From: Lysobacterales bacterium
Lineage (GTDB): Bacteria; Pseudomonadota; Gammaproteobacteria; Xanthomonadales; Xanthomonadaceae
DNA length: 44,730 nt
Assembly: GCA_038235795.1 (NCBI GenBank)
Contig: JBBSTP010000001.1
Coordinates: forward strand, 1-44,730
Reading direction: 5' to 3'
Notes under the pieces: generated by a model
Seen by the model: the letters and a program-made list of their open reading frames with translations, nothing else
What the model was told of the DNA's origin: nothing
Database searches by the model: none
Position numbers and translations under genes: made by a program
In this document: positions 5,978 to 31,322 of the stretch, piece by piece
Layout of the letters: each line of letters opens with the position of its first letter
Position numbering within the stretch: position 1 is the first letter of the stretch

Positions 5978-6063
5978 TCAAAAAGCTCATGCAGATGCTT
6001 CAAATTTTACGCTTTGGAATTCACGACGGATAGCTAAAACTGACGTCACTCGTTGGAGACACC

Positions 6064-7041: not shown

Positions 7042-7045
7042 CCCT

Positions 7046-9997
7046 GTGGAAGCTTCCCACTCCGTGGGCGCGCTGGAGCGCGACCTCTCGCAAGCACTCG
7101 GCGCGGCCGTGCGCTTCGACGATGGCCACCGGGCGGTCTATGCCTCCGACGCGTCTCTCTACCGGCAGATCCCGATCGGAGTGGTCGTCCCTAGAACACT
7201 GGACGACTTCGTCAAAGGCATCGAGGTCTGCCGCCGTCACAACGCTCCGGTGCTGATGCGCGGCGGTGGCACGTCGATGTGCGGCCAGACCGTCAACATC
7301 GCCGTCGTGTTCGACCTGTCGGCGTTCTGCGACGCGATCCTCGACGTCGATCCGGTGTCCGGCACGGCCTTGGTGGAACCGGGGGTGGTATGCGACAGCC
7401 TGCGTGACGCGGCCGAGCAGCATGGCCTCACCTTCGCGCCCGACCCCTCCACCCACAGTCGATGCACCCTGGGCGGGATGATCGCCAATAACTCGTGCGG
7501 CCCGCACTCGGTGATGGCCGGCAAGACGCTGGAGAATGTCGAGGCGCTGGAGGTCATGACCTACGATGGCGCGCGCTTCTGGGTCGGGCCAACCACCGAC
7601 GAGGAACTCAAATCGATCATTGCCGCGGGCGGGCGTCAGGGCGAGATCTATGGCCGGCTGCGCGACCTGCGCGACCGCTACGCAGTCCTCATCCGCAGCA
7701 AGTTCCCGGACATCAAGCGCCGGGTTTCGGGCTACAACCTCGACCAGTTGCTCCCAGAGAACGGCTTCAACGTCGCTCGGGCGCTGGTGGGCACGGAGGG
7801 CACTTGCGCCTTGACGTTGCAGGCCAGGGTTCGCTTGGTCAAAAGCCCTGCGAAGCGGGTGGTGCTGGTCCTCGGGTTTGCGGACATCTATGTCGCGGCT
7901 GACGCCGTGCCCGAGTACCAGCGCTTCTCGCCGATCGCCATCGAGGGGCTTGATCGCGCCATCATCCGCGGCCTGCAGGCCCGCAACCTGGCGCAGGCCG
8001 AGATCGACCTGCTACCCGACGGCGACGCCTGGGTGATGGTGGAGTTCGGCGCCGACACCGTGGAGGAAGCCACGGCCCAGGCGCGCCAGGCGGAAGCATA
8101 TTTCAGCGCCCGTCCAGCCGGCCCGGTCCCTTCCGCCTGGGTGGTGACGGACCCGGTAGTGCAAAAGCGCATCTGGTCGATCCGCGAGAACGGCGCCTCA
8201 GCGACCCAGTTGTCGATCGACCCCGATATTCCAGACCCGCAGGTCGGTTGGGAAGATGCGGCGGTCGATCCGCTGCGCCTCGGTGAGTACCTCCGCTCGT
8301 TTCAGGCGTTGGTTGACCGGTACGGCTATTGCACCTCACTGTTCGGCCATTTCGGCGATGGTTGTGTGCACGCCCGCATCACTTTCAACCTGCGTACCGT
8401 CGAGGGCGTGGCGCAGTTCCGCGCCTTCATCCGCGAGGCCGCGCAACTGGTCGTGGACTGTGGTGGGTCGCTGACCGGCGAGCACGGCGACGGTCAGGCC
8501 AAGGCCGAGTTCCTACCGATCATGTTCGGCGATGAACTGATGGAGGCACTGCGCGAGTTCAAGCGCATCTGGGATCCGGAGAACCGGCTTAACCCCGGCA
8601 AAGTGGTCGATGCCTATCGCGTCGACGAGAACCTGCGCATGGGTCCCCAGTACAAGGTCGTCAAGATCGCCACGCGCATGGACTTCCGGAGCGCCGAGGG
8701 CGACGGCTTCCAGCGTGCCGTTGAGCACTGCGTGGGCATGGGGCGCTGCCGCAGCGGCAAGGCCAACACCATGTGCCCGAGTTACCGCGCCACGAAGGAA
8801 GAGCGCTTCTCGACGCGTGGGCGCTCGCGCCTGTTCTGGGAGATGCTGCAGGGCGATGTGATCAAGGATGGCTGGAACAGCGAGTCGGTCAAGGAGGCGC
8901 TCGACACCTGCCTGGCATGCAAGGGCTGTCGCAGTGACTGCCCGACCCACACCGACATGGCTTCTTACAAGGCCGAGTTCCTGTCGCACTATTACGAAAA
9001 GCACATGCGTCCCCGCCAGGCGCTGACGATGGGCCGCATTGGCGACTGGGCCCCGCTGGCCGCGAAGGTGCCATGGCTGGCCAACCTGATGACACAGACG
9101 CCGGTGCTGTCCTCCATCTCCAAACTGGTGGGTGGAGTCGCGTCCGGCCGCGACATGCCCAAGTTCGCCACCGAACCATTTCGCAAGCTTGCGCGAAAGC
9201 GCAAGACGGCGCAACCGGGCGCCCGCAAGGTCATCCTCTGGGTTGACACCTTTTGCGAGCACTTCCACCCGGAGGTCGCCGAGGCAGCCGTCGAGGTGCT
9301 GGGACACGCGGGCTTTGAGTCAGTGCTTCCCGCAACGCTACTGTGCTGCGGCCGACCGCTTTACGACTTCGGCTATATCGACCTGGCGCGCGAAAAGTTG
9401 CGCAAGGTGCTTGACGTTGTGGGGACGCAAATGGCGCAGGACGCCGATGCGCCGATCGCCGTGGTCGGCCTTGAGCCAGGTTGCATGTCGGTCTTCAAGG
9501 ACGAACTGCTCAAGCTGTTCCCGGACGACCCGCGCGCCAAGCGGCTGGCTTCCAGCGTCTGGTTGCTGGGCGACTTCCTGCACGACCACGGCTACCAGCC
9601 GCCGCGTATGGAGATCGACGTGCTGGTGCATGCCCATTGCCACCAGAAGTCGCTGTTCGGCACGAAGGGCGATGTGGCATTGCTCAAGGCCATGGGGGCG
9701 CGCGCAGTGCACCTGGACAGCGGCTGCTGCGGCATGGCGGGATCGTTCGGCTTCAACCCCGAACACATCGAGATCTCGAAGGCGGTCGGGGAGTTGGTTC
9801 TACTGCCCGCGGTGCGCCAGGTCGGCCAGGACACGGTGATCCTCACCAACGGCTTTAGCTGCCGGGAACAAATCCGGCAGGGTGCTGGTCGCGAGGTGAT
9901 GCACTTGGCCGAGTTCCTTCGAATTGCGCATCAGCGCGAGGAAGAGGGTGCCAGTTTGTCTACTCCATCAGCCACCCTCCCAAACCAACGCATGTGA
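7046..9997 (+). CDS. FAD-linked, Fe-S-binding 2-hydroxyacid dehydrogenase (fused GlcD-GlcF / YdiJ-like)
   Basis: RGGGTS, APDPST...CTLGGMIANNSCG, GHFGDGCVH, GEHGDG, CVGMGRC, CLACKGCRSDCP, CCG motifs; 983 aa. Confidence 0.88.
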   Translation: MEASHSVGALERDLSQALGAAVRFDDGHRAVYASDASLYRQIPIGVVVPRTLDDFVKGIEVCRRHNAPVLMRGGGTSMCGQTVNIAVVFDLSAFCDAILDVDPVSGTALVEPGVVCDSLRDAAEQHGLTFAPDPSTHSRCTLGGMIANNSCGPHSVMAGKTLENVEALEVMTYDGARFWVGPTTDEELKSIIAAGGRQGEIYGRLRDLRDRYAVLIRSKFPDIKRRVSGYNLDQLLPENGFNVARALVGTEGTCALTLQARVRLVKSPAKRVVLVLGFADIYVAADAVPEYQRFSPIAIEGLDRAIIRGLQARNLAQAEIDLLPDGDAWVMVEFGADTVEEATAQARQAEAYFSARPAGPVPSAWVVTDPVVQKRIWSIRENGASATQLSIDPDIPDPQVGWEDAAVDPLRLGEYLRSFQALVDRYGYCTSLFGHFGDGCVHARITFNLRTVEGVAQFRAFIREAAQLVVDCGGSLTGEHGDGQAKAEFLPIMFGDELMEALREFKRIWDPENRLNPGKVVDAYRVDENLRMGPQYKVVKIATRMDFRSAEGDGFQRAVEHCVGMGRCRSGKANTMCPSYRATKEERFSTRGRSRLFWEMLQGDVIKDGWNSESVKEALDTCLACKGCRSDCPTHTDMASYKAEFLSHYYEKHMRPRQALTMGRIGDWAPLAAKVPWLANLMTQTPVLSSISKLVGGVASGRDMPKFATEPFRKLARKRKTAQPGARKVILWVDTFCEHFHPEVAEAAVEVLGHAGFESVLPATLLCCGRPLYDFGYIDLAREKLRKVLDVVGTQMAQDADAPIAVVGLEPGCMSVFKDELLKLFPDDPRAKRLASSVWLLGDFLHDHGYQPPRMEIDVLVHAHCHQKSLFGTKGDVALLKAMGARAVHLDSGCCGMAGSFGFNPEHIEISKAVGELVLLPAVRQVGQDTVILTNGFSCREQIRQGAGREVMHLAEFLRIAHQREEEGASLSTPSATLPNQRM

Positions 9998-10049
9998 GAC
10001 ATGCACCCGCCATGTCAACAAATGCCGTCGTGGCAAACCGAAGAGCGAC

Positions 10050-11519
10050 ATGCCGCTAACACTTTCACGCGCTGACCTAATCCGCACCTCCAATTTCATC
10101 GGCGGGCGCTGGATCGCGGGTGCGAGGCGTACGTTCGCAGTGTGCAACCCTGCCGATGACAGCTTGATCGTCGAAGTGGCCGACAGCGACGACGGTGATG
10201 CGAGATCTGCCATCGATGCGGCGGCCGCTGCCTTGCCGTCCTGGCGCGCGGCGCCTGCGCGCGAACGGGCCCAGGTGCTCAAGGGGTGGCACGCACTCAT
10301 CCTGCAGCATCAAGAAGACCTGGCCCGGTTGATTTCACAAGAGCAAGGCAAGCCCTTGGGCGAAGCGCGCGGTGAAATACTCTACGCAGCTGGCTATGTG
10401 GAATGGTTTGCCGAGGAGGCGATCCGAAGCTACGGCGACGTCATCCCTGAGACAGCACGTGGCCGCAAGATGCTGGTGGTAAAGGAAGGTGTAGGCGTCG
10501 TCGCAGCCATCACTCCGTGGAATTTCCCTGCCGCGATGATTGCGCGCAAGCTGGCGCCCGCACTTGCTGCCGGCTGCACGGTGGTGGCAAAGCCTGCAGA
10601 GGACACACCATTGACCTCGCTGGCCCTCGTCGCTCTTGCGGCCGAGGCAGGCGTCCCCGCGGGCGTGCTCAACGTGGTTACCGCGTCACGGGCGCAGGCC
10701 GCCGAAGTCGTCGATGTTTGGCTGGGTGATGCGCGCGTGCGCAAGATCACCTTCACCGGCTCGACGCCTGTGGGCAAGCACCTCGCCCGCGAGTCCGCTT
10801 CAACCCTGAAGCGCCTCTCGCTGGAACTCGGCGGCAATGCGCCGTTCATCGTGTTCGACGATGCCGATGTAGACGCGGCCGTGGACGGCCTCATCGCTGC
10901 AAAATTTCGAAACGGTGGCCAAACTTGCGTCTCGCCAAACCGCGTTTTTGCACAGTCAGGCATCCACGATGAATTTGTCGAGAAGCTGGCTGGGCGCGTC
11001 GCAGCCCTGAAGGTGGGACCTGCGACGGATGAAGCATCCCAGATCGGTCCCATGATCAACCGGCAGGCCGTTCGAAAGATCGCGAGCCACATTGCCGACG
11101 CAGTAGCGCACGGGGCCAAGGTAGTGGTCGGGGGCGCGACTGACGACGCTGAGGCATCGAACTACATCTCCCCGACGGTTTTGGCAGGCGTCACAGACAC
11201 CATGCTGTTGGCGAAGGAAGAGACCTTCGGCCCGGTCGCTGCGGTGTTCCGGTTTGACACCGAGGCCGAGGTCGTCGAAGCAGCGAACGGCACGCCATAC
11301 GGACTTGCCGCCTACTTTTATTCGCGCAACGCTGCGCGGATCTGGCGCGTGGCAGGCGCGATCGAGTGCGGCATCGTAGGCGTCAATGAAGGTCTCATTT
11401 CCTCAGAGACAGCGCCGTTTGGCGGCATCAAGGAGTCCGGCTATGGCCGCGAGGGGTCGCGTCACGGGCTGGATGACTACATGAACATCAAGTACGTTTG
11501 TCAAGGCGGGTTGTCATGA
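10050..11519 (+). CDS. gabD: NAD(P)-dependent succinate-semialdehyde dehydrogenase
   Basis: EQGKPLGEARGE, ITPWNFP, FTGST, SLELGGNAPF, KFRNGGQTCV, EETFGP, PFGGIKESGYGREG; start at ATG 10050. Confidence 0.88.
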   Translation: MPLTLSRADLIRTSNFIGGRWIAGARRTFAVCNPADDSLIVEVADSDDGDARSAIDAAAAALPSWRAAPARERAQVLKGWHALILQHQEDLARLISQEQGKPLGEARGEILYAAGYVEWFAEEAIRSYGDVIPETARGRKMLVVKEGVGVVAAITPWNFPAAMIARKLAPALAAGCTVVAKPAEDTPLTSLALVALAAEAGVPAGVLNVVTASRAQAAEVVDVWLGDARVRKITFTGSTPVGKHLARESASTLKRLSLELGGNAPFIVFDDADVDAAVDGLIAAKFRNGGQTCVSPNRVFAQSGIHDEFVEKLAGRVAALKVGPATDEASQIGPMINRQAVRKIASHIADAVAHGAKVVVGGATDDAEASNYISPTVLAGVTDTMLLAKEETFGPVAAVFRFDTEAEVVEAANGTPYGLAAYFYSRNAARIWRVAGAIECGIVGVNEGLISSETAPFGGIKESGYGREGSRHGLDDYMNIKYVCQGGLS

Positions 11520-11551
11520 ACATCGCCAAGCGCGATTGATAACAACCCGAT

Positions 11552-11579
11552 GCAGCCCCAGAGAGGCTGCCGGTTTTTT
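11552..11579 (+). terminator. Possible weak intrinsic terminator/attenuator after gabD
   Basis: GCAGCC-ccagaga-GGCTGC followed by cggTTTTTT. Confidence 0.3.
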
Positions 11580-11600
11580 AGCTTTCTCAAAGGAGACAAC

Positions 11601-12923
11601 ATGGAAACCGTCCAAGAACGCGCCGTCGTGCGCAAGGTATTCATGCGCCTCGTCCCCCTGCTCATGGGGCTCTACATCATCTCGTACATTGATCGTGTAA
11701 ACGTTGGTTTCGCCGCGTTGACGATGAACAAGGACATCGGCCTCAGCGCCTCGATATTCGGCTGGGGCGCTGGCATCTTCTTCGTCGGGTACTGCCTGTT
11801 TGAAGTTCCAAGCAACCTCATGATGGTGAAGGTTGGCGCGCGCCGATGGATCGCGCGAATACTCTTCACGTGGGGGGTTCTTGCCAGCGCCATGGCGTTC
11901 ATTCAAGGCCCGACCAGTTTCCTCGTGATGCGATTTCTTCTGGGTGTGGCAGAGGCGGGCTTCTTCCCTGCAGTGGTGCTGTACCTGACCTTCTGGTTTC
12001 CAGCGCGGTACAGGGCCCGCATCATTGCAACGTTCTCGCTGGCCATCCCGCTTGCGCTCGCGATCGGTGCGCCGGTATCGACGCTGATCATGGAGATGGA
12101 CGGCGTCTTGGGATACAAAGGATGGCAGTGGCTTTTCTTTCTCGAAGGCATTCCCGGCGTCTTGCTTACTCTCGTGGTTTTGAGGGTCCTGCCGGACAGC
12201 CCGCAGGGTGCCAAGTGGTTGAACGCTGCTGAGCGCAAATGGCTGGCGGACGAACTCGAAAAGGATGTGCAGGCCAGCCCTGCTGCGGGCAAGGATGGCG
12301 CGCATCTTTCTGTTCTACAAGTATTCAAGCACCCAGCCATCCTTACGCTTTGCTTCATTTATTTCTGTGCCACTGCCACCAACCTCGGGGTGTCGCTATT
12401 CCTTCCGCAAATCGTGAAGCAGCAGGGTTTCACCAACATGCAAACCGGCTTGATCTCCGCGGTCCCCTATATTTTTGGCTGCATCGGGATGATTGGAATC
12501 GGGTACCTTTCCGACCGACACAACGAACGCAAGGGGTACGTGATCGCGGCGATGCTGATCGCTGCCGCTGGTCTTGGCCTTGCCGGATGGTTCGGCAACA
12601 CCATCGCCGCCATCGCAGCGCTGTGCCTTGCCACGATTGGCATCTTGGGCATCAAGGGACCGTTTTGGTCATTGCCTTCTGCGTATTTGACCGGTGCGAG
12701 CGCGGCAGCCGGGATCGCCTTCATCAATTCTGTGGGCAACCTGGGTGGGTTCTTCGGACCATCCATCGTGGGTATGGCGCGTGAATTGACCGGTAACTTT
12801 GAAAGTGGGCTGTACGCGCTGTCCGGCTTGGCAGTGGCCGCGGTATTCGTTGCCCTCATCGGCGTGAGATCGACTGCGAAAAGCCGTCGGTTGAGAGAAA
12901 CGGGCCAAGCGGTCGTTGGCTAG
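11601..12923 (+). CDS. MFS transporter, anion:cation symporter (tartrate/phthalate-like organic acid permease)
   Basis: YIDRVNVGFA, FEVPSN, MRFLLGVAEAGFFP, GWQWLFFLEG; AGGAG RBS before ATG 11601. Confidence 0.9.
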   Translation: METVQERAVVRKVFMRLVPLLMGLYIISYIDRVNVGFAALTMNKDIGLSASIFGWGAGIFFVGYCLFEVPSNLMMVKVGARRWIARILFTWGVLASAMAFIQGPTSFLVMRFLLGVAEAGFFPAVVLYLTFWFPARYRARIIATFSLAIPLALAIGAPVSTLIMEMDGVLGYKGWQWLFFLEGIPGVLLTLVVLRVLPDSPQGAKWLNAAERKWLADELEKDVQASPAAGKDGAHLSVLQVFKHPAILTLCFIYFCATATNLGVSLFLPQIVKQQGFTNMQTGLISAVPYIFGCIGMIGIGYLSDRHNERKGYVIAAMLIAAAGLGLAGWFGNTIAAIAALCLATIGILGIKGPFWSLPSAYLTGASAAAGIAFINSVGNLGGFFGPSIVGMARELTGNFESGLYALSGLAVAAVFVALIGVRSTAKSRRLRETGQAVVG

Positions 12924-13212
12924 AAGCGGACGCCCCGAGAGCGTGCGTCTATTCCAAACCCAAAAGTGCGAAGTGTTGTTTCTCCCGCATGCCGTCTTGC
13001 GGCGCAGTGCGAACAAGCGCAAGTCCGATCCCCTGTCGACGCAGCGCTTGCGTTTCTAACGCTATACGGCCCGCGTGTCCACTCCGACAGCCTCTGACAG
13101 CCTCGTTGATACCTTTTTTGTCTGAGGAACTGGTGCGGCAAAAAAAGAGCGAGGCGTTGCCGGTTGCACAAGGGCCGCCTTTCCGTCTGATTGTTCAACT
13201 CAAGGATTTCCC

Positions 13213-14880
13213 ATGAAAGCATCCGACCTGTTCGTCAAAGCCCTGGAGAACGAGGGCGTCGATCGCATTTTTGCGGTGCCCGGTGAAGAAAATCTCGATC
13301 TCGTCGAGTCGCTGCGGCGCTCCAGCATCCAGCTCGTCCTGACACGGCATGAGCAGTCTGCGGCCTTTATGGCCGCAACGCACGGTCGCCTGACGGGCAA
13401 GGCTGGCGTGTGCATGGCCACGCTCGGCCCCGGCGCGCTGAACCTGGTCACTGGCGCAGCATATGCGCACCTCGGTGCGATGCCGATGATCCTCATCACT
13501 GGCCAGAAGGCCATCATGACAGCCCGCCAGGCGCGCTTCCAAATCGTCGACATCGTCGCCACGATGAAGCCGCTGACCAAGGCGTCTCGGCAGATCGTGA
13601 GTGCGGCCAGCATCCCGACAGTGGTGCGTGAAGCGTTCAGGCTAGCGGAAGAGGAGAGGCCTGGCCCCGTGCATCTCGAGCTGCCGGAAGACGTCGCCGG
13701 CGAGACGCTGCCCGACGGCATCACTATCGTCGAAGTGCATCCGGTCGAGCTCCCGGAAGCGCAAGACGCTTCGGTCGAGCGAGCCGCCCAGATGCTGATG
13801 AGGGCACAGCGTCCACTGGTTATGTGCGGCGCGGCCACCAACCGACCGCGGCTCGCCGGCCAACTCACCGATTTCGTGCGCCGCACCGGCATCCCTTTTT
13901 TCAACACGCAGATGGGCAAGGGCACGTTTGCGGCCCTTGGCAACGAGGATGGCGGTACCGAATTGTGGATGGGTACGGCCGCATTGACCGAGCGCGACTA
14001 TGTCCACGAAGCGATCGACCAAGCCGATCTGATTCTGGCCATCGGCCATGACACGATCGAGAAGCCGCCTTTCATCATGGGCGCCAATGGGCCCAAGGTG
14101 ATCCACATCGGCTATACACCAGCCAACGTGGAGCAGGTGTTTTTCCCGCACGCCGAAGTGGTGGGCGACGTTGAATCGAGCTTGGCGCGCTTGGCCGACA
14201 AGGTGGAGGGCAAACTGCCGAACGCGGCCGCGTTGGTGCCGTTGCGGGAAGGCATCTTGAGGCGAACGCTGGACCGAGCCACCGAATCTCGCTTTCCACT
14301 GACGCCGCAACGCATCGTTCACGATGTGCGGGCGGTCATGCCGTTCGACGGTGTGGTGGCGCTTGACAACGGCATGTACAAGATATGGTTCGCGCGCTGC
14401 TACCGCACGCGCAGCGCCAACGCGCTCTTGCTGGACAACGCACTTGCCACGATGGGTGCCGGCTTGCCCTCGGCGATGATGGCCGCGCTGTTGTACCCGG
14501 AGCGACGCGTGTTGGCGGTTTGTGGCGACGGCGGTTTCATGATGAACTCGCAGGAGCTGGAGACCGCCGTGCGGCTGAGGCTCAATCTTGTGGTGCTCAT
14601 CATCCAGGACGACGCCTACGGGATGATCCGCTGGAAGCAGGCGGTCGACAATTTCACAGATTGGGGTTTGACCTTCGGCAATCCGGACTTCGTCAAGTAC
14701 GCCGCGGCCTATGGCGCCGAAGGAAGACGCGTCGAAGGGGCTGAAGGTCTAGCCCCGGCACTCGAAGCGGCATTCCGCGCGGGCGGGGTGCAACTGGTAA
14801 TCGTGCCGGTCGACTATTCGGAAAATGGCCGCGTGCTCGTCGATGAACTCAGGAACCGCGTTCCAGAGGTGGCGCTGTGA
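13213..14880 (+). CDS. ThDP-dependent enzyme, 'acetolactate synthase-like' family; candidate 2-oxoglutarate decarboxylase
   Basis: LENEGV..IFAVPGEENL, TRHEQSAAFMA, TLGPGA, LLDNALATMG, GDGGFMMNSQELET; no ilvH/ilvN small subunit nearby. The family call is solid, the substrate is inferred. Confidence 0.85.
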   Translation: MKASDLFVKALENEGVDRIFAVPGEENLDLVESLRRSSIQLVLTRHEQSAAFMAATHGRLTGKAGVCMATLGPGALNLVTGAAYAHLGAMPMILITGQKAIMTARQARFQIVDIVATMKPLTKASRQIVSAASIPTVVREAFRLAEEERPGPVHLELPEDVAGETLPDGITIVEVHPVELPEAQDASVERAAQMLMRAQRPLVMCGAATNRPRLAGQLTDFVRRTGIPFFNTQMGKGTFAALGNEDGGTELWMGTAALTERDYVHEAIDQADLILAIGHDTIEKPPFIMGANGPKVIHIGYTPANVEQVFFPHAEVVGDVESSLARLADKVEGKLPNAAALVPLREGILRRTLDRATESRFPLTPQRIVHDVRAVMPFDGVVALDNGMYKIWFARCYRTRSANALLLDNALATMGAGLPSAMMAALLYPERRVLAVCGDGGFMMNSQELETAVRLRLNLVVLIIQDDAYGMIRWKQAVDNFTDWGLTFGNPDFVKYAAAYGAEGRRVEGAEGLAPALEAAFRAGGVQLVIVPVDYSENGRVLVDELRNRVPEVAL

Positions 14881-16004
14881 AGACCCGTGCCGCCGTCCTC
14901 TACTCGATGGACTCAAAGCCGCCTTATGCGGTATCCCGACCCTTGCGCATCGAAGAGGTCGACCTGGCACCGCCAGGAGCCGATGAGGTGATGATCAAAG
15001 TCGTTGCCGCCGGCTTGTGCCATTCGGACCTTTCGGTGATCAATGGCGATCGTCCGCGGCCGATGCCGATGGCGTTGGGCCACGAAGCCGCGGGCATCGT
15101 GGAGCAGCTGGGCGAAGGCGTGACGGACCTCAAGGTCGGCGATCATGTGGTCGTGGTGTTTGTGCCGAGTTGTGGCCACTGCGCGCCCTGCGCTGAAGGC
15201 CGGCCGGCACTGTGCGAACCAGGTGCCGCGGCCAATGGTGCGGGAACTCTGCTCTCGGGCGCAAGACGCCTGAGTCTTGGAACGGGAGTGCTTAACCATC
15301 AACTGGGCTGCTCGGTATTTGCTGAGTACGCGACGGTGTCGAGACGCTCGCTTGTCAAGATCGACCCGACCGTGCCGCTGCACGAGGCGGCGTTGTTCGG
15401 CTGCGCGGTGCTCACCGGGGTTGGCGCGGTCGTCAACACGGCCAAGTTGCAATTGGGCGCCTCGGTGGCGGTGATTGGACTGGGCGGCGTGGGGTTGGCC
15501 GCGTTGATCGGGGCGGTTGCAGTCGGTGCGCGCCAGATCATTGCCGTCGATTTGGCCGATGACAAGCTGGAGCAGGTGCTCGCACTCGGCGCGACCCACA
15601 CGGTCAACGCGGGGCAAGCCGACGCGCTGGAGCAGATTCGCGCGCTGAGCTCAGGCGGCGTGGAGTTCGCCTTCGAGTTCGCAGGCTCGGTTCGCGCGCT
15701 CGATCTCGCCTACAAGATCACGCGCCGCGGCGGCATGACCGTCACCGCCGGGCTGCCGCCGGCCGCAGCGCTGTTCCCCCTGCCAGCCGTCAGCCTAGTC
15801 GCCGAGGAGCGCACGCTCAAGGGCAGCTACATCGGCACCTGCGTGCCTTCGCGCGACATCCCGCGGTACATCGAACTCTACAAGCAAGGTCGCCTGCCGG
15901 TGGACAAGCTGCTCACCGGCCGCTTGAAGCTCGAAGACATCAACCATGGATTCGACTTGCTGCACGAAGGCAAGGCGATTCGCCAAGTCGTGGAATTCGC
16001 ATGA
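14877..16004 (+). CDS. Zn-dependent medium-chain alcohol dehydrogenase
   Basis: GLCHSD, GHEAAG, CGHCAPC..C structural Zn site, GCAVLTG, GLGGVG; GTGA overlap with the upstream gene. Confidence 0.92.
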   Translation: MKTRAAVLYSMDSKPPYAVSRPLRIEEVDLAPPGADEVMIKVVAAGLCHSDLSVINGDRPRPMPMALGHEAAGIVEQLGEGVTDLKVGDHVVVVFVPSCGHCAPCAEGRPALCEPGAAANGAGTLLSGARRLSLGTGVLNHQLGCSVFAEYATVSRRSLVKIDPTVPLHEAALFGCAVLTGVGAVVNTAKLQLGASVAVIGLGGVGLAALIGAVAVGARQIIAVDLADDKLEQVLALGATHTVNAGQADALEQIRALSSGGVEFAFEFAGSVRALDLAYKITRRGGMTVTAGLPPAAALFPLPAVSLVAEERTLKGSYIGTCVPSRDIPRYIELYKQGRLPVDKLLTGRLKLEDINHGFDLLHEGKAIRQVVEFA

Positions 16005-16870
16005 CTACGCAAACCGAACAGGCTGACGGCGCCAAGCCATGGGTGGAGGCCTGGGCCCGGAACATGGCGCCGCTCTTGAGGACCGTATTCCCCGGAGCAC
16101 CAGACTCGGCCGCCGACGATGCGAAGTCCCCCATCGAGGAGCATTTCGCGGCGCTCAACGATACCTGGAAGGATTCGATCGAAAAGTGGTCTGCGTTGGC
16201 GAAAGAGGGGGCGCGCCCGGAGGCTCTCACACCCGAAGCCTTGCTGGAGCTTTTCACGCCAGCGCGCTGGAGCGGTCCTGGTAGCGGCGCGTTCGATTCC
16301 GGCTTGAGTGAAGTGCTGAAAGGGCCTAGGTACGCAACGCTGTGGAATATGGATCGCGAACTGCTCCAGCTCCAACAGCGCGCGTACGAGCGCGACAGGC
16401 TGGTTATGGCTTACCAGGCCATTGTCCGGAAAGCGTGGAACAAGGCGTTCGAGCGCTTCTCGCAATCCTTCGCGTCGAACAAGAGCGAAGCTCCGGCAAC
16501 GTGGCGCGCAATGGCCGACCGTTGGCTCGCCGTTGCCAATGAAGTGCTGATCGAGGCACACCGGTCGGACGAGTTCATCGAGGCCCAGACCCGCATGCTG
16601 CGCGCTTCCTCCGAATATCGCCTTCAGGAGCGCCAACTCGCTGAAGGATGGTGCGCCGCCAGCCACATTCCGACGCGCACCGAGATGGATGAGATGCAGC
16701 GCGTCGTCACGGAATTGAGACGGGAGACCCGGCTGCTGCGTCGCCAGGCGGCCTCATCCGCCGAGCCGGCGCCGCGCTCGCCAGCTCCGACGCAGCGCGC
16801 CGCTCGCGCCCCTGCACGCAAGCCGAGCGCTGCCGCTGCCAAAAAGGCACGCCGAGCAACCAAGGCCTGA
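16001..16870 (+). CDS. phaE: Class III PHA synthase subunit PhaE
   Basis: DRWLAVANEVLIEAHRSDEFIEAQ...IPTRTEMDEMQRVVTELRRE (PhaE PTRxE motif); directly before a class III phaC; ATGA overlap. Confidence 0.85.
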   Translation: MTTQTEQADGAKPWVEAWARNMAPLLRTVFPGAPDSAADDAKSPIEEHFAALNDTWKDSIEKWSALAKEGARPEALTPEALLELFTPARWSGPGSGAFDSGLSEVLKGPRYATLWNMDRELLQLQQRAYERDRLVMAYQAIVRKAWNKAFERFSQSFASNKSEAPATWRAMADRWLAVANEVLIEAHRSDEFIEAQTRMLRASSEYRLQERQLAEGWCAASHIPTRTEMDEMQRVVTELRRETRLLRRQAASSAEPAPRSPAPTQRAARAPARKPSAAAAKKARRATKA

Positions 16871-16879
16871 GGAACACCC

Positions 16880-17986
16880 ATGACAGTCCTCAAGAAATCC
16901 CCCGCCGCTGCGGCACTCGCGGAGTTCAGCGACTTCAATCTGAAAATGGCGCGCGGCCAGATGCTGCTCGGCAAGATCAAGGACGAGCACGTCCAGATCG
17001 CCACCGCCGACAAGGAAGTGGTGTTTCGCGAGGACAAGACCACGCTCTATCGTTACAAGCCTACGGCCAAACGGGCCCTGGGTATCCCGGTGCTCGTGGC
17101 CTATGGCCAAGTCGGTCGCTACACGATGACGGACCTCCAGGAGGACCGTTCGATGCTGCGCAACCTGCTGGCGCTCGGCGTCGATGTCTACGCCGTCGAC
17201 TGGGGCAGCCCGACGCGCAGCGACCGTTGGCTCACTTTCGAAGACTACGTCGACGTCTACCTGAACGACTGCATCGAGTTCATTTGCCGCGAACACAAGG
17301 TTTCGGCAATCAACCTGTTGGGCATCTGCGAAGGCGGTGTTTTCTCGCTGTGCTACGCGGCGCTGTACCCTGACCGCGTCAAGAACCTGATCCTCGCGAT
17401 CACGCCCGTCGACTTCCATCAGGACCAAGCCGAAAGCCGAGTCAACCATGGTCTGCTCAACATGTGGGCGCGAGGCCTGAGCGCCGAAGATGTCGATGCA
17501 CTCATCGAGGCCAACGGCAACCTGCCGGGTGAATTGATGAGCCACATCTTCACCCAGCTGACGCCTGGCGCCACCTTGTCCAAGTACAACGTGGGCCTGC
17601 TCGACACGTTCGACGATGAGAAGAAGTTGCTCAATTTCCTGCGCATGGAAAAGTGGCTGTCAGACCGGCCGCACCATCCTGGCGAAGCGGCCAAACAACT
17701 CCTTGTCAACCTCTACAAGAACAACGAACTGATCAGGGGCGAGTTCGCGCTCGGCGGCCGCAAGGTCGATCTAGCCAGCATCCGCATACCCGTCCTCAAC
17801 GTCTTCGCTAAAGACGATCACATCATCCCGCCCAAGACCACGCAGGCATTGCGCGGCGCCGTCGGCAGCAAGGACTACTCGGAAATCGGTCTGGATGGTG
17901 GCCATGTCGGCGTGTTCGTCAGCGGTAAGTCGCAAGGGGTGCTCGGCAAGGGCATTTTCGACTGGCTGAAGAAACGCGATAGGTAG
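16880..17986 (+). CDS. phaC: Class III poly(hydroxyalkanoate) synthase catalytic subunit
   Basis: 368 aa; DLQEDRS, DVYAVDWG, LLGICEGG (Cys), TPVDFH, FLRMEKWL, KDDHIIP (Asp), GGHVG (His). Confidence 0.93.
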   Translation: MTVLKKSPAAAALAEFSDFNLKMARGQMLLGKIKDEHVQIATADKEVVFREDKTTLYRYKPTAKRALGIPVLVAYGQVGRYTMTDLQEDRSMLRNLLALGVDVYAVDWGSPTRSDRWLTFEDYVDVYLNDCIEFICREHKVSAINLLGICEGGVFSLCYAALYPDRVKNLILAITPVDFHQDQAESRVNHGLLNMWARGLSAEDVDALIEANGNLPGELMSHIFTQLTPGATLSKYNVGLLDTFDDEKKLLNFLRMEKWLSDRPHHPGEAAKQLLVNLYKNNELIRGEFALGGRKVDLASIRIPVLNVFAKDDHIIPPKTTQALRGAVGSKDYSEIGLDGGHVGVFVSGKSQGVLGKGIFDWLKKRDR

Positions 17987-18013
17987 CCCGTGGCGCGTCG
18001 ACAAGACAAGGTA

Positions 18014-18949
18014 ATGGAACCTCGGCTGAAGGAGGTTTCGGTGCTGGGTCACGGGGGATTCCGGCGACTCTCGTACGCTGAATGGGGGCCGGAGAAAGCC
18101 GAGCGCACCGTGATGTGCGTGCACGGCGTCTCGCGCACGGGCCGCGACTTCGACGTGCTTGCGGCTGCGCTGGTGGGAGCCGACGATGTTCGGGTTGTTG
18201 CACCCGACCTTCCGGGGCGCGGGCGCAGCGAGTGGCTTTCCAAGCCAGCGCACTACACCGACCGGGCCTACACCGGCGCGCTGTCCACGCTCATTGCGCG
18301 ACTCGATGTGGAGCAGTTGGACTGGATCGGCACATCCCTTGGCGGCCACATCGGTATGCTGATGTCGTCGGAGTACGCGACGCCGATCAGGCGGTTGGTG
18401 CTCAACGACTTCGGCGCACGCGTTTCCGCATCAGCCTTGCGACGCATCGGGGCCTATTTGGGCAAACGTTGGCGGTTTGCGTCTGTCGATGACCTCGAGG
18501 CGCATCTTCGCGAGATCCACGAGCCCTTTGGCAACCTGACGGATGCCCAGTGGCGCCACCTTGCGAAGCACAGCGCGGCACCCGATCCCACCGGCGGGTT
18601 CCGCTTTCATTTCGATCCGGCCATCGGCGCACGCTTTGCCATCCCGATCTACCTGGACGTCGTGCTGTGGCAACTCTGGGACAAGATCGATTGCCCGGTG
18701 CTGATCCTGCGCGGCGAAGACTCGGATCTGCTGTGCGACTCGACGACCCGTGACATGCTCAATCGTGGCCCTGCGGCCAAGGCGGGCAGGGTCACCGTCG
18801 TCGAAATTCTGGAGTGCGGACACGCACCGGCGCTGATGGAAGCGACGCAGATCGAAGTCATCAAGGACTTTCTCCTCTCCCCAACCCCCGTGCAGGCGGG
18901 CGGGCACGCGCGTCAGCCGCAGCGCGCGCTGAGCGTTCAACGTCCCTGA
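18014..18949 (+). CDS. Alpha/beta hydrolase, PhaZc/PhaY2 (hydroxyalkanoate-oligomer hydrolase)-like
   Basis: YAEWG...CVHGVSRTGRDFD...PDLPGRGRSEWL...GTSLGG...LNDFG...RGEDSDLL...GHAP resembles Ralstonia PhaZc as recalled; alternative start GTG 17990. Confidence 0.75.
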   Translation: MEPRLKEVSVLGHGGFRRLSYAEWGPEKAERTVMCVHGVSRTGRDFDVLAAALVGADDVRVVAPDLPGRGRSEWLSKPAHYTDRAYTGALSTLIARLDVEQLDWIGTSLGGHIGMLMSSEYATPIRRLVLNDFGARVSASALRRIGAYLGKRWRFASVDDLEAHLREIHEPFGNLTDAQWRHLAKHSAAPDPTGGFRFHFDPAIGARFAIPIYLDVVLWQLWDKIDCPVLILRGEDSDLLCDSTTRDMLNRGPAAKAGRVTVVEILECGHAPALMEATQIEVIKDFLLSPTPVQAGGHARQPQRALSVQRP

Positions 18950-18956
18950 GCACACG

Positions 18957-20912
18957 ATGAAGCAAGACAAGATGGTCACGGCCGAAGAAGCTGTCGCGTT
19001 GATCCGCGACGGCGACTCGGTCAGTTGCTCGGGCTTCGTGGGCATTGGCACCCCTGAAGCACTGATCGAAGCGCTGGAGCGGCGCTTCGTCGACACACAG
19101 GGACCGCGCGATCTCACACTGGTGTTTGCCGCGGCGCCGGGCGATGCCAAGGAGCGCGGCCTCAATCGGCTGGCGCACCCGGGCCTGGTCAAGCGCGCCA
19201 TCGGCGGCCATTGGTCCCTCGTGCCCAAGCTTGGGAAGCTGGCCACCGACAACCTGATCGAGGCCTACAACCTTCCGCTGGGCGTCGTCTCGCACCTGTA
19301 TCGCGACGTGGCAGCACATCGGGCCGGAAGCCTGAGCAAGGTCGGCATGGGAACCTTTGTCGACCCGCGCCATGGCGGCGGCAAGATCAACGCAAAGACC
19401 ACCGAGGACCTGGTGAGGGTCATGATGATCGATGGTGAGGAATGGCTGTTCTACAAGACCTTTCCGGTCAACGTGGCACTGATCCGCGGCACCACCGCCG
19501 ATGCGTTCGGCAACATCACGATGGAGCGCGAGGCGCTGGTGCTGGATGCGCAGGCGGCTGCGATGGCCGCGCGCAATGCCAATGGACTGGTCATTGCGCA
19601 GGTGGAGCGCATCGCCGCGACCGGTTCGCTGGATGCGCGCAGTGTCGTGGTGCCGGGTGTGCTGGTCGATTGTGTGGTGCTGGCACAGCAGGCTTCACAC
19701 GTTCAGACCTACGGCACCGACTACAGCGCTGCGTTCTCGGGCGAGATCAGGGTGCCGACCGACAAGATCATGCCCGCGCCGCTCGATGAGCGAAAGCTGA
19801 TCGCCCGGCGTTGCGCCTTCGAATTGCCACTGGGCGGGGTGATCAATCTGGGCATCGGCGTGCCAGAGGTGGTCGCTGCCGTTGCAGCGGAGGAGCGCGT
19901 GCTGGACGCCTTGACGCTCACGGCCGAGCCCGGTGTGATCGGTGGCATGCCGCAGGGCGGCCTGGATTTTGGCGCGGCAGTCAACGTTCATGCGCTATTG
20001 CACCAGAATCAGCAGTTCGATTTCTACGATGGCGGCGGGCTCGACCTCGCCTGCCTGGGCATGGCCGAGATCGACCGCATCGGCAACGTCAACGTGAGCC
20101 GCTTCGGGCCGCGCCTGGCAGGTGCGGGCGGCTTCATCAACATCAGCCAGAACGCTCGGCGCCTGGTCTTCGCCGGCACATTCACCGCGGGGGGGCTGCA
20201 GATATCGATCGACGATGGCAAGGTGCGCATCGACGTCGAAGGCAAGGTGCGCAAGTTCGTCGACGCGGTGGAGCAGATCACCTTCAGCGGCGCGCAGGCG
20301 GCAGCCAAGGGCCAGTCAGTGCACTACGTGACCGAGCGTTGTGTCTTCAAGCTTCGGCCGGAAGGGCTGCAACTCATCGAGGTGGCACCCGGTATCGACG
20401 TCGAGCATGACATCGTCGCGCACATGGGTTTCCGACCTGTGATCGGCACCGTGAGCACCATGGATGCGCGCATCTATCGGCCCAAGTCGATGGGCCTGGC
20501 TGCGGTGCTGCAAGACCTTCAACTCTCCGATCGCCTGAGCTATGACGTAGAACGCAACACGCTATTTGTCAACTTCGAAGGCATGGCCATTCGTAGCGCA
20601 GAAGAGATCGAGAGCGTGCGCCGTGTGTTCGAGGCGCTGTGTAGCCAGATCGGCCGCAAGGTGAACCTGATCGTCAACTACGACGGCTTCAAGCTCGACG
20701 AGATGGTGAACGAGGCGTACGAAGAGATGGTTGCCACACTGCGGGCGAAGTACTACGCCACGGCCCGGCGCTACACGACCAGTGCCTTCATGCGTGCCAA
20801 GTTGGGCCCGAATTTGCAGGCCCGCCAGGCTTCGGCGCGCGTCTTCGAGACACGCGCCGACGCGGCCGAGTTTGTTCGCAAGCTGCAGCATTTCACTCCG
20901 ATCGCCGCCTAA
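18957..20912 (+). CDS. Family I acyl-CoA:acetate/propionate CoA-transferase (Pct/YdiF-like) with extra C-terminal domain
   Basis: IEAYNLPLG, GTFVDPR, INLGIG, TAEPG (catalytic Glu), FDFYDGGGLD, GAGGFINISQ, YVTERCVF; about 120-aa C-terminal extension. Confidence 0.88.
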   Translation: MKQDKMVTAEEAVALIRDGDSVSCSGFVGIGTPEALIEALERRFVDTQGPRDLTLVFAAAPGDAKERGLNRLAHPGLVKRAIGGHWSLVPKLGKLATDNLIEAYNLPLGVVSHLYRDVAAHRAGSLSKVGMGTFVDPRHGGGKINAKTTEDLVRVMMIDGEEWLFYKTFPVNVALIRGTTADAFGNITMEREALVLDAQAAAMAARNANGLVIAQVERIAATGSLDARSVVVPGVLVDCVVLAQQASHVQTYGTDYSAAFSGEIRVPTDKIMPAPLDERKLIARRCAFELPLGGVINLGIGVPEVVAAVAAEERVLDALTLTAEPGVIGGMPQGGLDFGAAVNVHALLHQNQQFDFYDGGGLDLACLGMAEIDRIGNVNVSRFGPRLAGAGGFINISQNARRLVFAGTFTAGGLQISIDDGKVRIDVEGKVRKFVDAVEQITFSGAQAAAKGQSVHYVTERCVFKLRPEGLQLIEVAPGIDVEHDIVAHMGFRPVIGTVSTMDARIYRPKSMGLAAVLQDLQLSDRLSYDVERNTLFVNFEGMAIRSAEEIESVRRVFEALCSQIGRKVNLIVNYDGFKLDEMVNEAYEEMVATLRAKYYATARRYTTSAFMRAKLGPNLQARQASARVFETRADAAEFVRKLQHFTPIAA

Positions 20913-20934
20913 CACCGGGCGCACCTTGAAACCG

Positions 20935-21741
20935 ATGCAACTCACAGCCGTCGAGGTACTCGAACACGTGGTCAATAAGCCTGGCGCGGCCGGCGAAATC
21001 GCCAACGCCTACGTGGCAAAGGCCAAGCCGGACGGCTACACGCTCGGCATCGTCAACGTGCCTGCGTTCCTGTATGTCCCGATGGTCAAGAAGTCGCAGT
21101 ACCAGGTCGATGACTTCCGCCTGATCGCCCGCCTGGTCGACGACCCGACGGTGCTGGTCACCCGCGCCGACAGCAAGTACAACACGCTCTCCGACGTCAT
21201 CGGCGAACTGCGAAGCAAGCCCGAGTCGGTCTCGTTCGGGCACAACGGCATTGGCTCCAATGGCGACCTGGCGCTGGTGGCGCTGTCGTCCGCCGCCGGG
21301 GTGAAGGTCAACCCAATTCCGTACAAGGGAACCTCGGCACAGAAGACCGACATCCACGGCGGACACCTGGACTTCGCGGTCATCAGTGCGGGCGAGGTAG
21401 CCGAGCTGCATGGCGGCAAGACGGGGCAGCTCAAGGCAGTGACCCAGCTCTCGGAGAAGCGCTCGAGCGCTCTGCCGCAGGTGCCCACCGGGAGCGAAGG
21501 GAAGTTCGACGTGCTGATGTCGTCCGAGCGCGGCATGGCCGCTCCCGCCAAGATGGCGCCTGAGATCGCCAAGCAACTCCAGGACGCCGTGGAACAGACC
21601 TTGCGCGATCCGGAGTTCATTGCGGCAGCGGGCGGCGACGCACCGGTGCTGGCCTACCTGCCGGGCGGCCAGTGGCAGCAGTCCCTGAAGCAGAACAGCA
21701 AGGCCCTGCGCGCCGTCGCCGACAAGGCGCCCAAGCAATAA
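20935..21741 (+). pseudogene. 5'-truncated Bug/TctC substrate-binding protein
   Basis: Homology starts at VVNKPGAAGEIA...KPDGYTL...IPYKG; the signal peptide and the YP..PI..IVP..PGG..D motif are absent. Confidence 0.8.
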
Positions 21742-21751
21742 GCCGGAACCC

Positions 21752-22678
21752 ATGACACAGAACACCATCCTCATCACCGCGCCCAAGGTGCGCCCGGAAG
21801 CCGCCGACTTGCTGCGCGACCACCGGCTGGTCTGTACCAACGCTTCCGTTACGGAGGACGCCCTAGTCGACTTGTGCATCACCCAGCAACCGGTGGCGAT
21901 CCTCGCCCGCTACGGCCTGTTCAACGAACGTGTGTTGAGCGCTTCCGCGCGGCTGAAGGTCATCTCGCGCCACGGCGTGGGCATGGACGCCATCGACAAG
22001 GCTACTGCGAAGCGGCTTGGCATCGCGGTCGAGGCGGCCATAGGTTCCAACAGCCAGGCGGTTGCCGAACACGCCATCGGACTCATGTTCGCTTGCGCCC
22101 GCAAGCTGGCTTGGCGTGACCAGCACATGCGGCAGGCCCACTGGGACAAGGACGCCTGCCTTGGGATGGAACTGCAGGGCACCACGCTGGGCATCGTCGG
22201 CTGCGGCTCGATCGGACGCCGGGTCGCCGAGTTCGGTAAGGCCATGGCCATGAAGGTGCTGGTCTGCGACCCGTACCTCACGGCGAGTCAGCTGCCTGCC
22301 GACACGGTCAAGGTCGAGTTGGACGAACTGCTTGGAAGCTGCCAAGTTGTCTCCCTTCACTGTCCGTTGACTGCCGAAACGCGCGGCGTGCTCACTGCGG
22401 CCCGGCTGGAGCTGCTCAAGCCAGGGGCCATCGTCATCAACACCGCGCGGGCAGGCCTCTTCGACGAGCAGGCCATGCTGGACAGGCTGCACGAAGGGCG
22501 GCTCAGCCTCGGCCTGGATTGTTTCGACGAGGAGCCCTTACCGGCAAATTCTCCTTGGCTCGCCGCGCCTAACTCCGTGATGACGCCGCATGTCGGCGGC
22601 ACCACCGACGGCGGCATGCGGGGCATGGGTGTGGGCGCGGCGCGCAACATCCTCAAGCACCTGGAGGCACGGTCATGA
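21752..22678 (+). CDS. D-isomer-specific 2-hydroxyacid dehydrogenase (SerA-like, no ACT domain)
   Basis: SRHGVGMDAID, NSQAVAEH, GCGSIG, SLHCPLT, INTARAG, EEP, TPHVGG. Confidence 0.9.
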   Translation: MTQNTILITAPKVRPEAADLLRDHRLVCTNASVTEDALVDLCITQQPVAILARYGLFNERVLSASARLKVISRHGVGMDAIDKATAKRLGIAVEAAIGSNSQAVAEHAIGLMFACARKLAWRDQHMRQAHWDKDACLGMELQGTTLGIVGCGSIGRRVAEFGKAMAMKVLVCDPYLTASQLPADTVKVELDELLGSCQVVSLHCPLTAETRGVLTAARLELLKPGAIVINTARAGLFDEQAMLDRLHEGRLSLGLDCFDEEPLPANSPWLAAPNSVMTPHVGGTTDGGMRGMGVGAARNILKHLEARS

Positions 22679-31291: not shown

Positions 31292-31322
31292 ACCTAGCCC
31301 TGTGACTTCTGGAGTTCTCGCC

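Follow-up and report, generated by a model that had tools for sequence, protein, structure and literature searches.

What does a class III polyhydroxyalkanoate (PHA) synthase do in an operon with a thiamine diphosphate (ThDP)-dependent enzyme, an alcohol dehydrogenase (ADH) and a CoA-transferase? The question is raised by contig JBBSTP010000001.1 of a Lysobacterales assembly (GCA_038235795.1), analysed here over its 44,730 nucleotides and referred to as the window. In it, six co-oriented genes encode a ThDP enzyme, a Zn-dependent ADH (Zn-ADH), PhaE, PhaC, an alpha/beta hydrolase and a CoA-transferase. An earlier reading of the sequence (the original prediction) held that this operon makes either 4-hydroxybutyrate (4HB) from 2-oxoglutarate or 5-hydroxyvalerate from 2-oxoadipate, and polymerises it. 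We consider it about 75% probable that the six genes form one conserved unit making a 4HB polyester from 2-oxoglutarate; of the two proposed products, 5-hydroxyvalerate is now the less likely. This view is based on the layout, gene families, conservation, replacements within single gene slots, neighbouring genes and the PhaC subclade. From these we infer the activities of the window's own proteins and the monomer of the polymer.

In the proposed pathway, the ThDP enzyme would convert 2-oxoglutarate into succinic semialdehyde (SSA) and CO2, and reduction of SSA by the Zn-ADH would yield 4HB. The CoA-transferase would then form 4HB-CoA, with acetyl-CoA as donor, for polymerisation by PhaEC, either alone or together with 3-hydroxybutyryl-CoA (3HB-CoA) of the host. 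The hydrolase and GabD, a succinic semialdehyde dehydrogenase (SSADH) encoded upstream, would return stored 4HB to succinate. Since the route from 2-oxoglutarate uses one NAD(P)H, it could serve as a carbon and reductant sink bypassing 2-oxoglutarate dehydrogenase. In operons that include acnA and icd, the conversion of citrate (C6H8O7) to 4HB (C4H8O3) and 2 CO2 would be redox-neutral overall, and acetate from the transferase would be recycled to the acetyl-CoA donor through acs, ppa and adk.

The arrangement first described is borne out by open reading frame (ORF) coordinates and junction sequences: the genes are joined in order by a GTGA overlap, an ATGA overlap, 9 nt, 3 or 27 nt and 7 nt. 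DNA similarity to three Variovorax copies carrying the same clade of ThDP gene (clade A, see below) starts at positions 13195–13211 and stops at 20806–20882, and the V. brevis copy is 82% identical across 7.7 kb. Because similarity begins and ends there, the coordinates originally assigned to the operon coincide, within about 100 bases, with the limits of a conserved unit. As had been noted, the window appears free of other PHA genes: no thiolase (PhaA), PhaB or MaoC/PhaJ matched among the 36 probable genes, out of 135 ORFs of at least 100 amino acids, that were scanned with profiles; phaB is, however, present above cut-off on contig C11 of the same assembly. One sequencing run, possibly the source, covers the operon about 30x, with no alternative letters listed. 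In the gap 5' of the operon, no sigma-70, FNR or strict sigma-54 site was found.

Table. Features of the operon, its upstream neighbour and the split rhizobial homologues (window positions unless a locus is named)
Feature	Position	Strand	Basis
ThDP-dependent enzyme, PRK08322 family clade A; predicted 2-oxoglutarate decarboxylase	13213..14880	+	NCBIfam above cut-off
Zn-dependent medium-chain alcohol dehydrogenase; predicted SSA reductase	14877..16004	+	PF08240+PF00107
PhaE subunit, C-terminal tail rich in Ala/Pro/Lys/Arg	16001..16870	+	PF09712
Class III PhaC, separate subclade	16880..17986	+	TIGR01836
Alpha/beta hydrolase; start 17990 (GTG) or 18014 (ATG)	17990..18949	+	motifs GTSLGG114, GHAP277
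YdiF/Pct-type family I CoA-transferase (GhbT homologue); predicted 4HB:acetyl-CoA CoA-transferase	18957..20912	+	
C-terminal extension of CoA-transferase, predicted STAS/SpoIIAA-like fold	20514..20909	+	AlphaFold + structure comparison
GabD-type SSADH, upstream, outside the six-gene unit	10050..11519	+	TIGR01780
Split ThDP gene, two long open frames	L224:6500-8148; L102:5509-7160; L104:6207-7822; L101:8194-10072, 20246-21873		

Is the layout conserved in other genomes? A synteny search had been set beforehand as a check, and its outcome is favorable. Among the best 80 of 592 PhaC-anchored loci in GTDB genomes, with genes called by fixed identity filters, a PRK08322 gene lies upstream in 47, and 46 have the ThDP enzyme, a reductase and phaEC together (module loci); 43 of these 46 also have the CoA-transferase. 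The alpha/beta hydrolase was found in 39 and SSADH-like genes in 18 of the 80 loci, and 23 had no module gene. There are also ten module loci without the ThDP gene, six of which end at a contig edge. The module occurs in alpha-, beta- and gammaproteobacteria and in one actinobacterium; carriers include Variovorax, Caballeronia, Xenophilus, Bradyrhizobium, Methylobacterium, Microvirga, Amylibacter, Arenicella, Nostocoides and a Bosea plasmid. In Variovorax it is patchy and multicopy, being present in 3 of 148 genomes as 3, 2 and 2 copies. These counts ignore kinship and show linkage, with no statistical test attached. The six-gene layout is thus a real unit conserved across genomes.

Partial versions of the unit occur as well. 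Plasmids of Caballeronia, Paraburkholderia and Skermanella (L249, L250 and L251) carry the CoA-transferase, ThDP and Zn-ADH genes with no intact phaEC within 9 kb. L257 has the three genes too, likewise with no intact phaEC nearby. A phasin and a methyltransferase accompany the set in two of the plasmid loci, and the Skermanella set adjoins araD and kdgD, which lead to 2-oxoglutarate. Such sets look like a monomer-supply form of the module. In Caballeronia pedi (L024:2089-8198), a hydrolase, a flavin reductase, a luciferase-like monooxygenase and an aldehyde dehydrogenase stand in place of the ThDP gene, ahead of the Zn-ADH gene and phaEC, and may provide a different semialdehyde source for the same synthase.

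The window's ThDP enzyme scores 802.9 bits against PRK08322 (cut-off 509), a model that orthologues of the cyanobacterial 2-oxoglutarate decarboxylase OgdA also pass. The ThDP genes of the operons form two clades, A, which includes the window enzyme, and B. Clade A is 41–45% identical to cyanobacterial OgdA orthologues (42% for the window enzyme and one such orthologue), and for clade B, 19 of 20 rows show 53–59% identity with the cyanobacterial reference. The two clades swap between near-identical operon copies inside a single genome, that of V. rhizosphaerae. The resemblance to OgdA first proposed stands as membership of the same family. It does not extend to strict orthology, in view of 41–42% identity and of a sister-clade placement in which clade A is separate from the OgdA clade at 100% support, and the N-terminal motif originally cited is common to both clades. 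Likewise, the suggested phylogeny against OgdA, AlsS and IlvB gave a divided answer: quick trees put clade A on the OgdA side with a modest 92–94% SH-aLRT support, but an approximately unbiased (AU) test, from which the long-branch row L223 was omitted, did not reject a grouping with AlsS (p-AU 0.136). The omitted row is a divergent PRK08322-like gene on a Dinoroseobacter shibae plasmid (L223:6637-9620), where it overlaps the glutamate dehydrogenase gene gdhA, another 2-oxoglutarate-linked neighbour.

The window enzyme keeps E47, K390, A412, M414, GDGG 438–441, D466, Y469, K475 and Y535, and retains 12 of the 17 positions named for the Microcystis 2-oxoglutarate decarboxylase KGD, including the equivalents of E50, K386, D435, D462 and K471. 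Both lysines, K386 and K471, were docked onto 2-oxoglutarate in that enzyme, and cyanobacterial KGD is reported to accept only 2-oxoglutarate among six 2-oxo acids, a set outside which 2-oxoadipate and oxaloacetate fall (PMC10418658). The K386 equivalent is present in 34/34 clade A and 20/20 clade B operon rows and in none of five AlsS or five IlvB/IlvI-type rows, and the K471 equivalent is found in every clade A row. The AlsS and IlvB/IlvI-type rows have neither lysine; AlsS proteins have His, Ser or Tyr at the K390 position and Gln at the K475 position. AlsS/BudB is the nearest outgroup (31–34% identity), the AlsS model gives the window enzyme 411.6 bits, below its cut-off of 510, and the window has no budA, a gene that adjoins alsS in 5/5 fetched cases. 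In cyanobacteria, PRK08322 genes occur in 14 of 41 genomes, one each, and 13 of these 14 loci have an aldehyde dehydrogenase gene alongside, as in ogdA-ssaD; the cyanobacterial reference (L123) has 17/17 of the numbered residues of the assayed Microcystis KGD. Moreover, icd lies directly upstream of the ThDP gene in several loci. We predict that the window enzyme decarboxylates 2-oxoglutarate to SSA and CO2.

The next slot points in the same direction. Across the 46 module loci it holds a Zn-ADH in 13 and an Fe-dependent ADH (Fe-ADH) in 33, never both. Among these Fe-ADHs are full-length matches, 51–82% identical, to GhbD of Sinorhizobium meliloti HM006, which in purified form reduces SSA with NADH or NADPH (Km 0.11 with NADH; PMC12636752). 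The window has no GhbD match, its slot being occupied by the Zn-ADH with the motifs CHSD48, GHE68, C99–C113 (Zn) and GLGGVG201. The Zn-ADH is predicted to be an SSA reductase by slot replacement only. A role as glutathione-dependent formaldehyde dehydrogenase (class III ADH) was considered and rejected, its TIGR02818 score of 306.3 lying far below the cut-off of 543.95.

By sequence criteria, namely model, catalytic triad and adjacent PhaE, PhaEC classifies as a class III PHA synthase. PhaC scores 374.3 against TIGR01836 (cut-off 365.3), with a motif-assigned triad C150/D313/H342 and the box G-I-C-E-G-G; PhaE scores 81.5 against PF09712 (threshold 25.7) and 76.6 against TIGR01834, under its cut-off of 154.95. 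Module PhaCs form one class III branch (75 rows, FastTree, 100% local support), which also contains ten loci without the module. Glu follows the catalytic Cys (G-x-C-E-G-G) in 66/66 module PhaCs and likewise in every one of the 120 best database homologues; Gln takes its place in 30/30 PhaCs outside the branch and in 8/10 module-less members within it. This C-E box is a marker, and an effect on specificity can only be proposed. The PhaCs of L073–L080 and L089, within the branch, have the Gln box, mostly follow an AMP-binding acyl-CoA ligase gene and lack the module. The alpha/beta hydrolase is a predicted oligomer hydrolase or depolymerase.

The CoA-transferase has YdiF (2AHU) as its best match in the Protein Data Bank (PDB; E 7.5e-130, aligned over residues 6–514) and thus falls outside the AbfT/Cat2 family. 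It is a fused alpha-beta chain, in which E324 of a TAEPG motif aligns with the TVETG glutamate of YdiF, presumably the catalytic residue. YdiF/Pct-type transferases have a broad substrate range. An AbfT-type transferase was found only in loci L050 and L037; that of the actinobacterium Nostocoides (L050) has the 4HB CoA-transferase 3EH7 as its best PDB match (E 1.6e-107). The AbfT/Cat2 family also includes butyryl-CoA transferases. The C-terminal extension of the window transferase (AlphaFold pLDDT 77.9) had no Pfam match and no Foldseek match at E<=0.001, but structure comparison aligned it with 7O0I (VIA Z 9.6, rmsd 4.0, 111 aligned) and 2Q3L (Z 9.1). This domain is widespread in the transferase family and was discarded as an operon marker: among 401 Variovorax-family genomes, 71 have the long-form transferase, and of 30 inspected loci, 26 had no module gene within 1.5 kb.

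Genes flanking the module suggest where the substrate could come from. On the Bosea plasmid the order is acnA-icd-ThDP-FeADH-phaE-phaC-CoA-transferase-phasin-hydrolase-acs-ppa-adk-citrate:proton symporter. In total, icd, acnA, a PRK10406 permease, a citrate transporter or araD/kdgD flank 19/46 module loci versus 0/23 loci without the module. AcnA, the citrate symporter and the PRK10406 permeases, which we take to be the KgtP 2-oxoglutarate permease family, exceed their cut-offs. These neighbours, the GhbD slot partner (PMC12636752) and the AbfT/Cat2-family transferase of one relative all favor 4HB from 2-oxoglutarate as originally read.

A partly described counterpart exists in root-nodule bacteria. 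A 2025 preprint (PMC12636752) reports the cluster ghbD-phaE-phaC2-ghbT-acs on pSymA of S. meliloti HM006, in USDA1963 and on pRL10 of Rhizobium johnstonii 3841. There SSA and 4HB (called GHB) are raised in nodules, granules depend on the cluster, nitrogen fixation on alfalfa is lowered, and a phenotype is seen with ghbD alone. The preprint proposes a poly-4HB (P4HB) cycle for ghbD-phaEC-ghbT-acs, with GABA as the source of SSA. The HM006 locus matches the window at 51% identity for PhaC, 57% for the CoA-transferase and 57–61% for pieces of the ThDP gene, which makes it, by sequence, a homologue of the window operon. The genes upstream of ghbD are termed pseudogenes in the preprint, whose main text is silent on a decarboxylase, acetolactate synthase or oxoglutarate.

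The ThDP gene that lies upstream of ghbD is split at codon ~165–175, near the end of the N-terminal domain, in five copies: those of HM006, USDA1963 and TA1 and the two of 3841. With ORFs of annotated length, the junction has a purine-rich site and overlapping or adjacent start and stop codons in 3/5 copies, USDA1963 sharing the junction sequence of HM006. The halves compared show no internal stops at dS ~0.5 and keep E47, K390, GDGG and K475; their dN/dS is 0.36–0.65 versus 0.27–0.59 for ghbD and phaC. In three split copies Asn replaces D466, the TA1 copy is interrupted by a stop near its C-terminal end, and plainly decayed copies occur on other plasmids. Judged from these sequences, a working two-chain 2-oxoglutarate decarboxylase is possible.

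Several observations weigh against the 4HB reading. Locus counts overstate independence, because many loci are kin (Bradyrhizobium, Methylobacterium), and four long module loci (L024, L031, L032 and L069) have no ThDP gene directly upstream. The trees for clade A are affected by the modest support and unrejected AlsS grouping given above; the window enzyme departs from KGD at Q254, V382, A384, H385 and L467, and the KGD substrate contacts themselves derive from docking rather than from a structure (PMC10418658). At ThDP-anchored clade A metagenome loci, phaEC is present in only 4 of 80, and where enough downstream DNA was available (n=53), the next gene encodes a Zn-ADH in 7 cases, an aldehyde dehydrogenase in 12 and something else in 34. 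Because clade A is mostly not PHA-linked and an aldehyde dehydrogenase follows in 12/53, these data fit a general SSA-forming enzyme later recruited to the PHA unit. For the Zn-ADH, neither the 120 best matches nor the PDB include a characterised close relative, and its homologues at 56–67% identity sit in unrelated contexts. The icd-like gene is under the cut-offs for both isocitrate and homoisocitrate dehydrogenase, and in the window the operon has no adjacent icd, acnA or acs, the last being present in the assembly only on contig C81. Finally, the literature searched yielded no assay of any clade A enzyme or other window enzyme, nor a study that identified the polymer chemically; in the preprint text covered, the rhizobial polymer is reported from transmission electron microscopy (TEM) and Nile red only (PMC12636752).

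How do other explanations fare? The 4HB branch could be right and yet draw SSA from GABA transamination, external 4HB or butyrolactone, with clade A performing, for example, acetolactate synthesis or another carboligation. The GABA proposal and the phenotype of ghbD alone in the preprint (PMC12636752), the AU result and the module loci devoid of a ThDP gene agree with this. We consider it unlikely, given that two PRK08322 clades occupy the same slot, that icd can directly precede the ThDP gene, and that AlsS differs in both lysines, in its budA neighbour and in model score. A polyester of another omega-hydroxy acid, 5-hydroxyvalerate from 2-oxoadipate or 3-hydroxypropionate from oxaloacetate or malonic semialdehyde, would need identical chemistry; the match of the icd-like gene to homoisocitrate dehydrogenase models and the monooxygenase, flavin reductase and aldehyde dehydrogenase of C. 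pedi would suit it. We regard it as quite improbable in view of GhbD acting on SSA and the rise of GHB in nodules (PMC12636752), the acceptance by KGD of 2-oxoglutarate alone among the six acids assayed, which did not include 2-oxoadipate or oxaloacetate (PMC10418658), and the AcnA and citrate symporter neighbours.

Alternatively, host PhaAB might feed the synthase, which would then be an ordinary second poly-3-hydroxybutyrate (PHB) synthase; the ThDP enzyme and the ADH would belong to acetoin or alcohol fermentation, and acetate or 3HB would be the substrate of the CoA-transferase. The annotation of the ThDP gene as acetolactate synthase, the breadth of YdiF/Pct-type transferases and their frequency without phaEC (the 71/401 genomes above), and phaB in the source assembly speak for this, as does the term PHB synthase used for PhaE-PhaC2 of R. 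leguminosarum 3841 (PMC5852556). We give it little credence: budA is absent from the window, all slot swaps point toward SSA and 4HB, and the PhaC subclade with its C-E box follows the module (66/66 versus 0/30 outside). Scarcely credible, finally, is a catabolic or salvage unit that makes no 4HB de novo but stores it from outside and later oxidises it to SSA and succinate. Rhizobial loci have SSADH and attKLM-type genes in their vicinity, and the hydrolase and SSADH are frequent companions, but the decarboxylase, icd, acnA and citrate uptake would be left unexplained, and GhbD raised GHB in vivo (PMC12636752). A much bolder form of the 4HB reading can be offered tentatively, as more doubtful than probable: a widespread, mobile operon making P4HB homopolymer de novo from citrate or 2-oxoglutarate through a 4HB-selective G-x-C-E-G-G synthase, with clade A being the proteobacterial 2-oxoglutarate decarboxylases and the rhizobial "pseudogenes" a two-chain SSA supplier in bacteroids.

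Taking synthesis of a 4HB polyester from 2-oxoglutarate as the preferred reading, how does the operon relate to known systems? It shares with the rhizobial ghb/pha cluster the PhaC subclade and C-E box, the reductase-phaE-phaC order and the proposed chemistry from SSA through 4HB to P4HB. It differs in that its ThDP gene is intact, its reductase is a Zn-ADH rather than GhbD, a hydrolase gene is included, and neither an adjacent acs nor attLM is present; lacking GhbD and acs, it is not a strict member of that cluster. With the cyanobacterial OgdA/KGD-SsaD pairs (SYNPCC7002_A2770-A2771, sll1981, MAE_06010) it shares PRK08322, the catalytic Glu, the GDG motif, both docked lysines and an SSA-consuming partner; the window enzyme belongs to a sister clade, and its SSA would end up, after reduction, in a storage compound instead of in succinate. 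Canonical class III phaEC of Allochromatium, cyanobacteria and Xanthomonadales likewise combines PhaE with a PhaC that has the catalytic triad and exceeds the TIGR01836 cut-off, but the window PhaC is on a separate branch with G-x-C-E-G-G instead of G-x-C-Q-G-G, and its unit has no phaA or phaB. From AlsS/BudB the ThDP enzyme is set apart by its sub-threshold AlsS score, the lack of a budA neighbour and other active-site loop residues.

The comparison with engineered strains made in the original prediction holds, OgdA, 4HB dehydrogenase, 4HB-CoA transferase and PhaEC being matching steps (PMC7147479). Engineered P4HB and P(3HB-co-4HB) routes in Synechococcus 7002 and Halomonas use the same four steps (ogdA, gbd/4hbD, cat2/orfZ and phaC; PMC7147479, PMC8659255). 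By contrast, the window has a natural single operon with its own synthase subclade and with a YdiF-type transferase and Zn-ADH in place of clostridial or Porphyromonas enzymes. The original remark that no described natural operon of this layout was known to its author survives in part. A full-text literature search, which extended to neither subscription papers nor patents, found no paper on a decarboxylase-containing operon, and Hydrogenophaga pseudoflava, which makes 4HB units from L-arabinose, was absent among the named matches for PhaC or ADH. The ghbD-phaE-phaC2-ghbT-acs part has, however, been described (PMC12636752). Because that preprint already proposes a P4HB cycle, the window operon is a fuller variant and not the first. 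What is likely new is the decarboxylase as probable semialdehyde source, the wide spread, the supply genes and the conserved split decarboxylase gene upstream of rhizobial ghbD.

Reviews state that, for want of their own supply of 4HB monomers, most microbes depend on precursors or engineering, and that P4HB is the only PHA approved by the Food and Drug Administration (FDA) for medical use (PMC7147479, PMC8659255). The route from 2-oxoglutarate through 4HB to polymer has been known mainly from engineered strains and, in part, from root-nodule bacteria. A natural operon, with a synthase subfamily that would have evolved beside 4HB supply genes, offers testable parts for one-cassette production of P4HB or P(3HB-co-4HB). 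If the proposed activity is right, a large family now labelled acetolactate synthase would gain a function. The alpha-ketoglutarate decarboxylase activity that has been reported from Bradyrhizobium (cited in PMC10418658) would have candidate genes, and so would the step supplying SSA in the rhizobial cluster, which lowers nitrogen fixation on alfalfa.

Upstream of the operon, GabD scores 641 against TIGR01780 (cut-off 646.35), its ORF starting at 9924 with an in-frame ATG at 10050; a gene 84% identical to it sits inside the operon in the G426 copy (L241), and the enzyme could provide a way back to succinate. Among the 36 ORFs scanned, neither attL nor an annotated attM was found. The region just upstream (5048–12923) encodes LysR, TctC, a 983-aa FAD/Fe-S oxidoreductase, GabD and an MFS permease; the oxidoreductase weakly resembles the D-2-hydroxyglutarate dehydrogenase YdiJ (472 vs 1350 bits). 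These genes could supply 2-oxoglutarate or clear SSA. Directly after the operon (20913–21741) lies a 5'-truncated tctC matching residues 66–281 of the TctC encoded at 6064–7041, which suggests an insertion or deletion junction.

The window is the entire contig C1 of a 2.3-Mb assembly that is 85.5% complete. Its GC content is 61.8% versus 64.6 ± 1.3%, its tetranucleotide profile is the second most distant of 89 contigs, and its sequencing depth, about 30x, equals that of another contig. The window ThDP gene was not found in 52 congeners. PhaCs of the host's relatives (full-length class III matches) are at most 48% identical to that of the operon and cluster with a Rhodanobacteraceae sequence, and the operon's nearest kin are in Variovorax. 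Contig C1 is thus either a recently acquired element or a mis-binned contig. A MobQ-like relaxase with a RepB primase C-terminal domain (612–1961) and a XerC/D-like tyrosine recombinase (38623–39579) make it look like a plasmid or mobilisable element. Elsewhere in the window, positions 24833–25825 encode a metallo-beta-lactamase fold nearest to subclass B3/CAR models, although far below cut-off (168.6 vs 500), and positions 31209–33662 encode a BisC-like molybdopterin S/N-oxide reductase within a low-GC stretch (54%).

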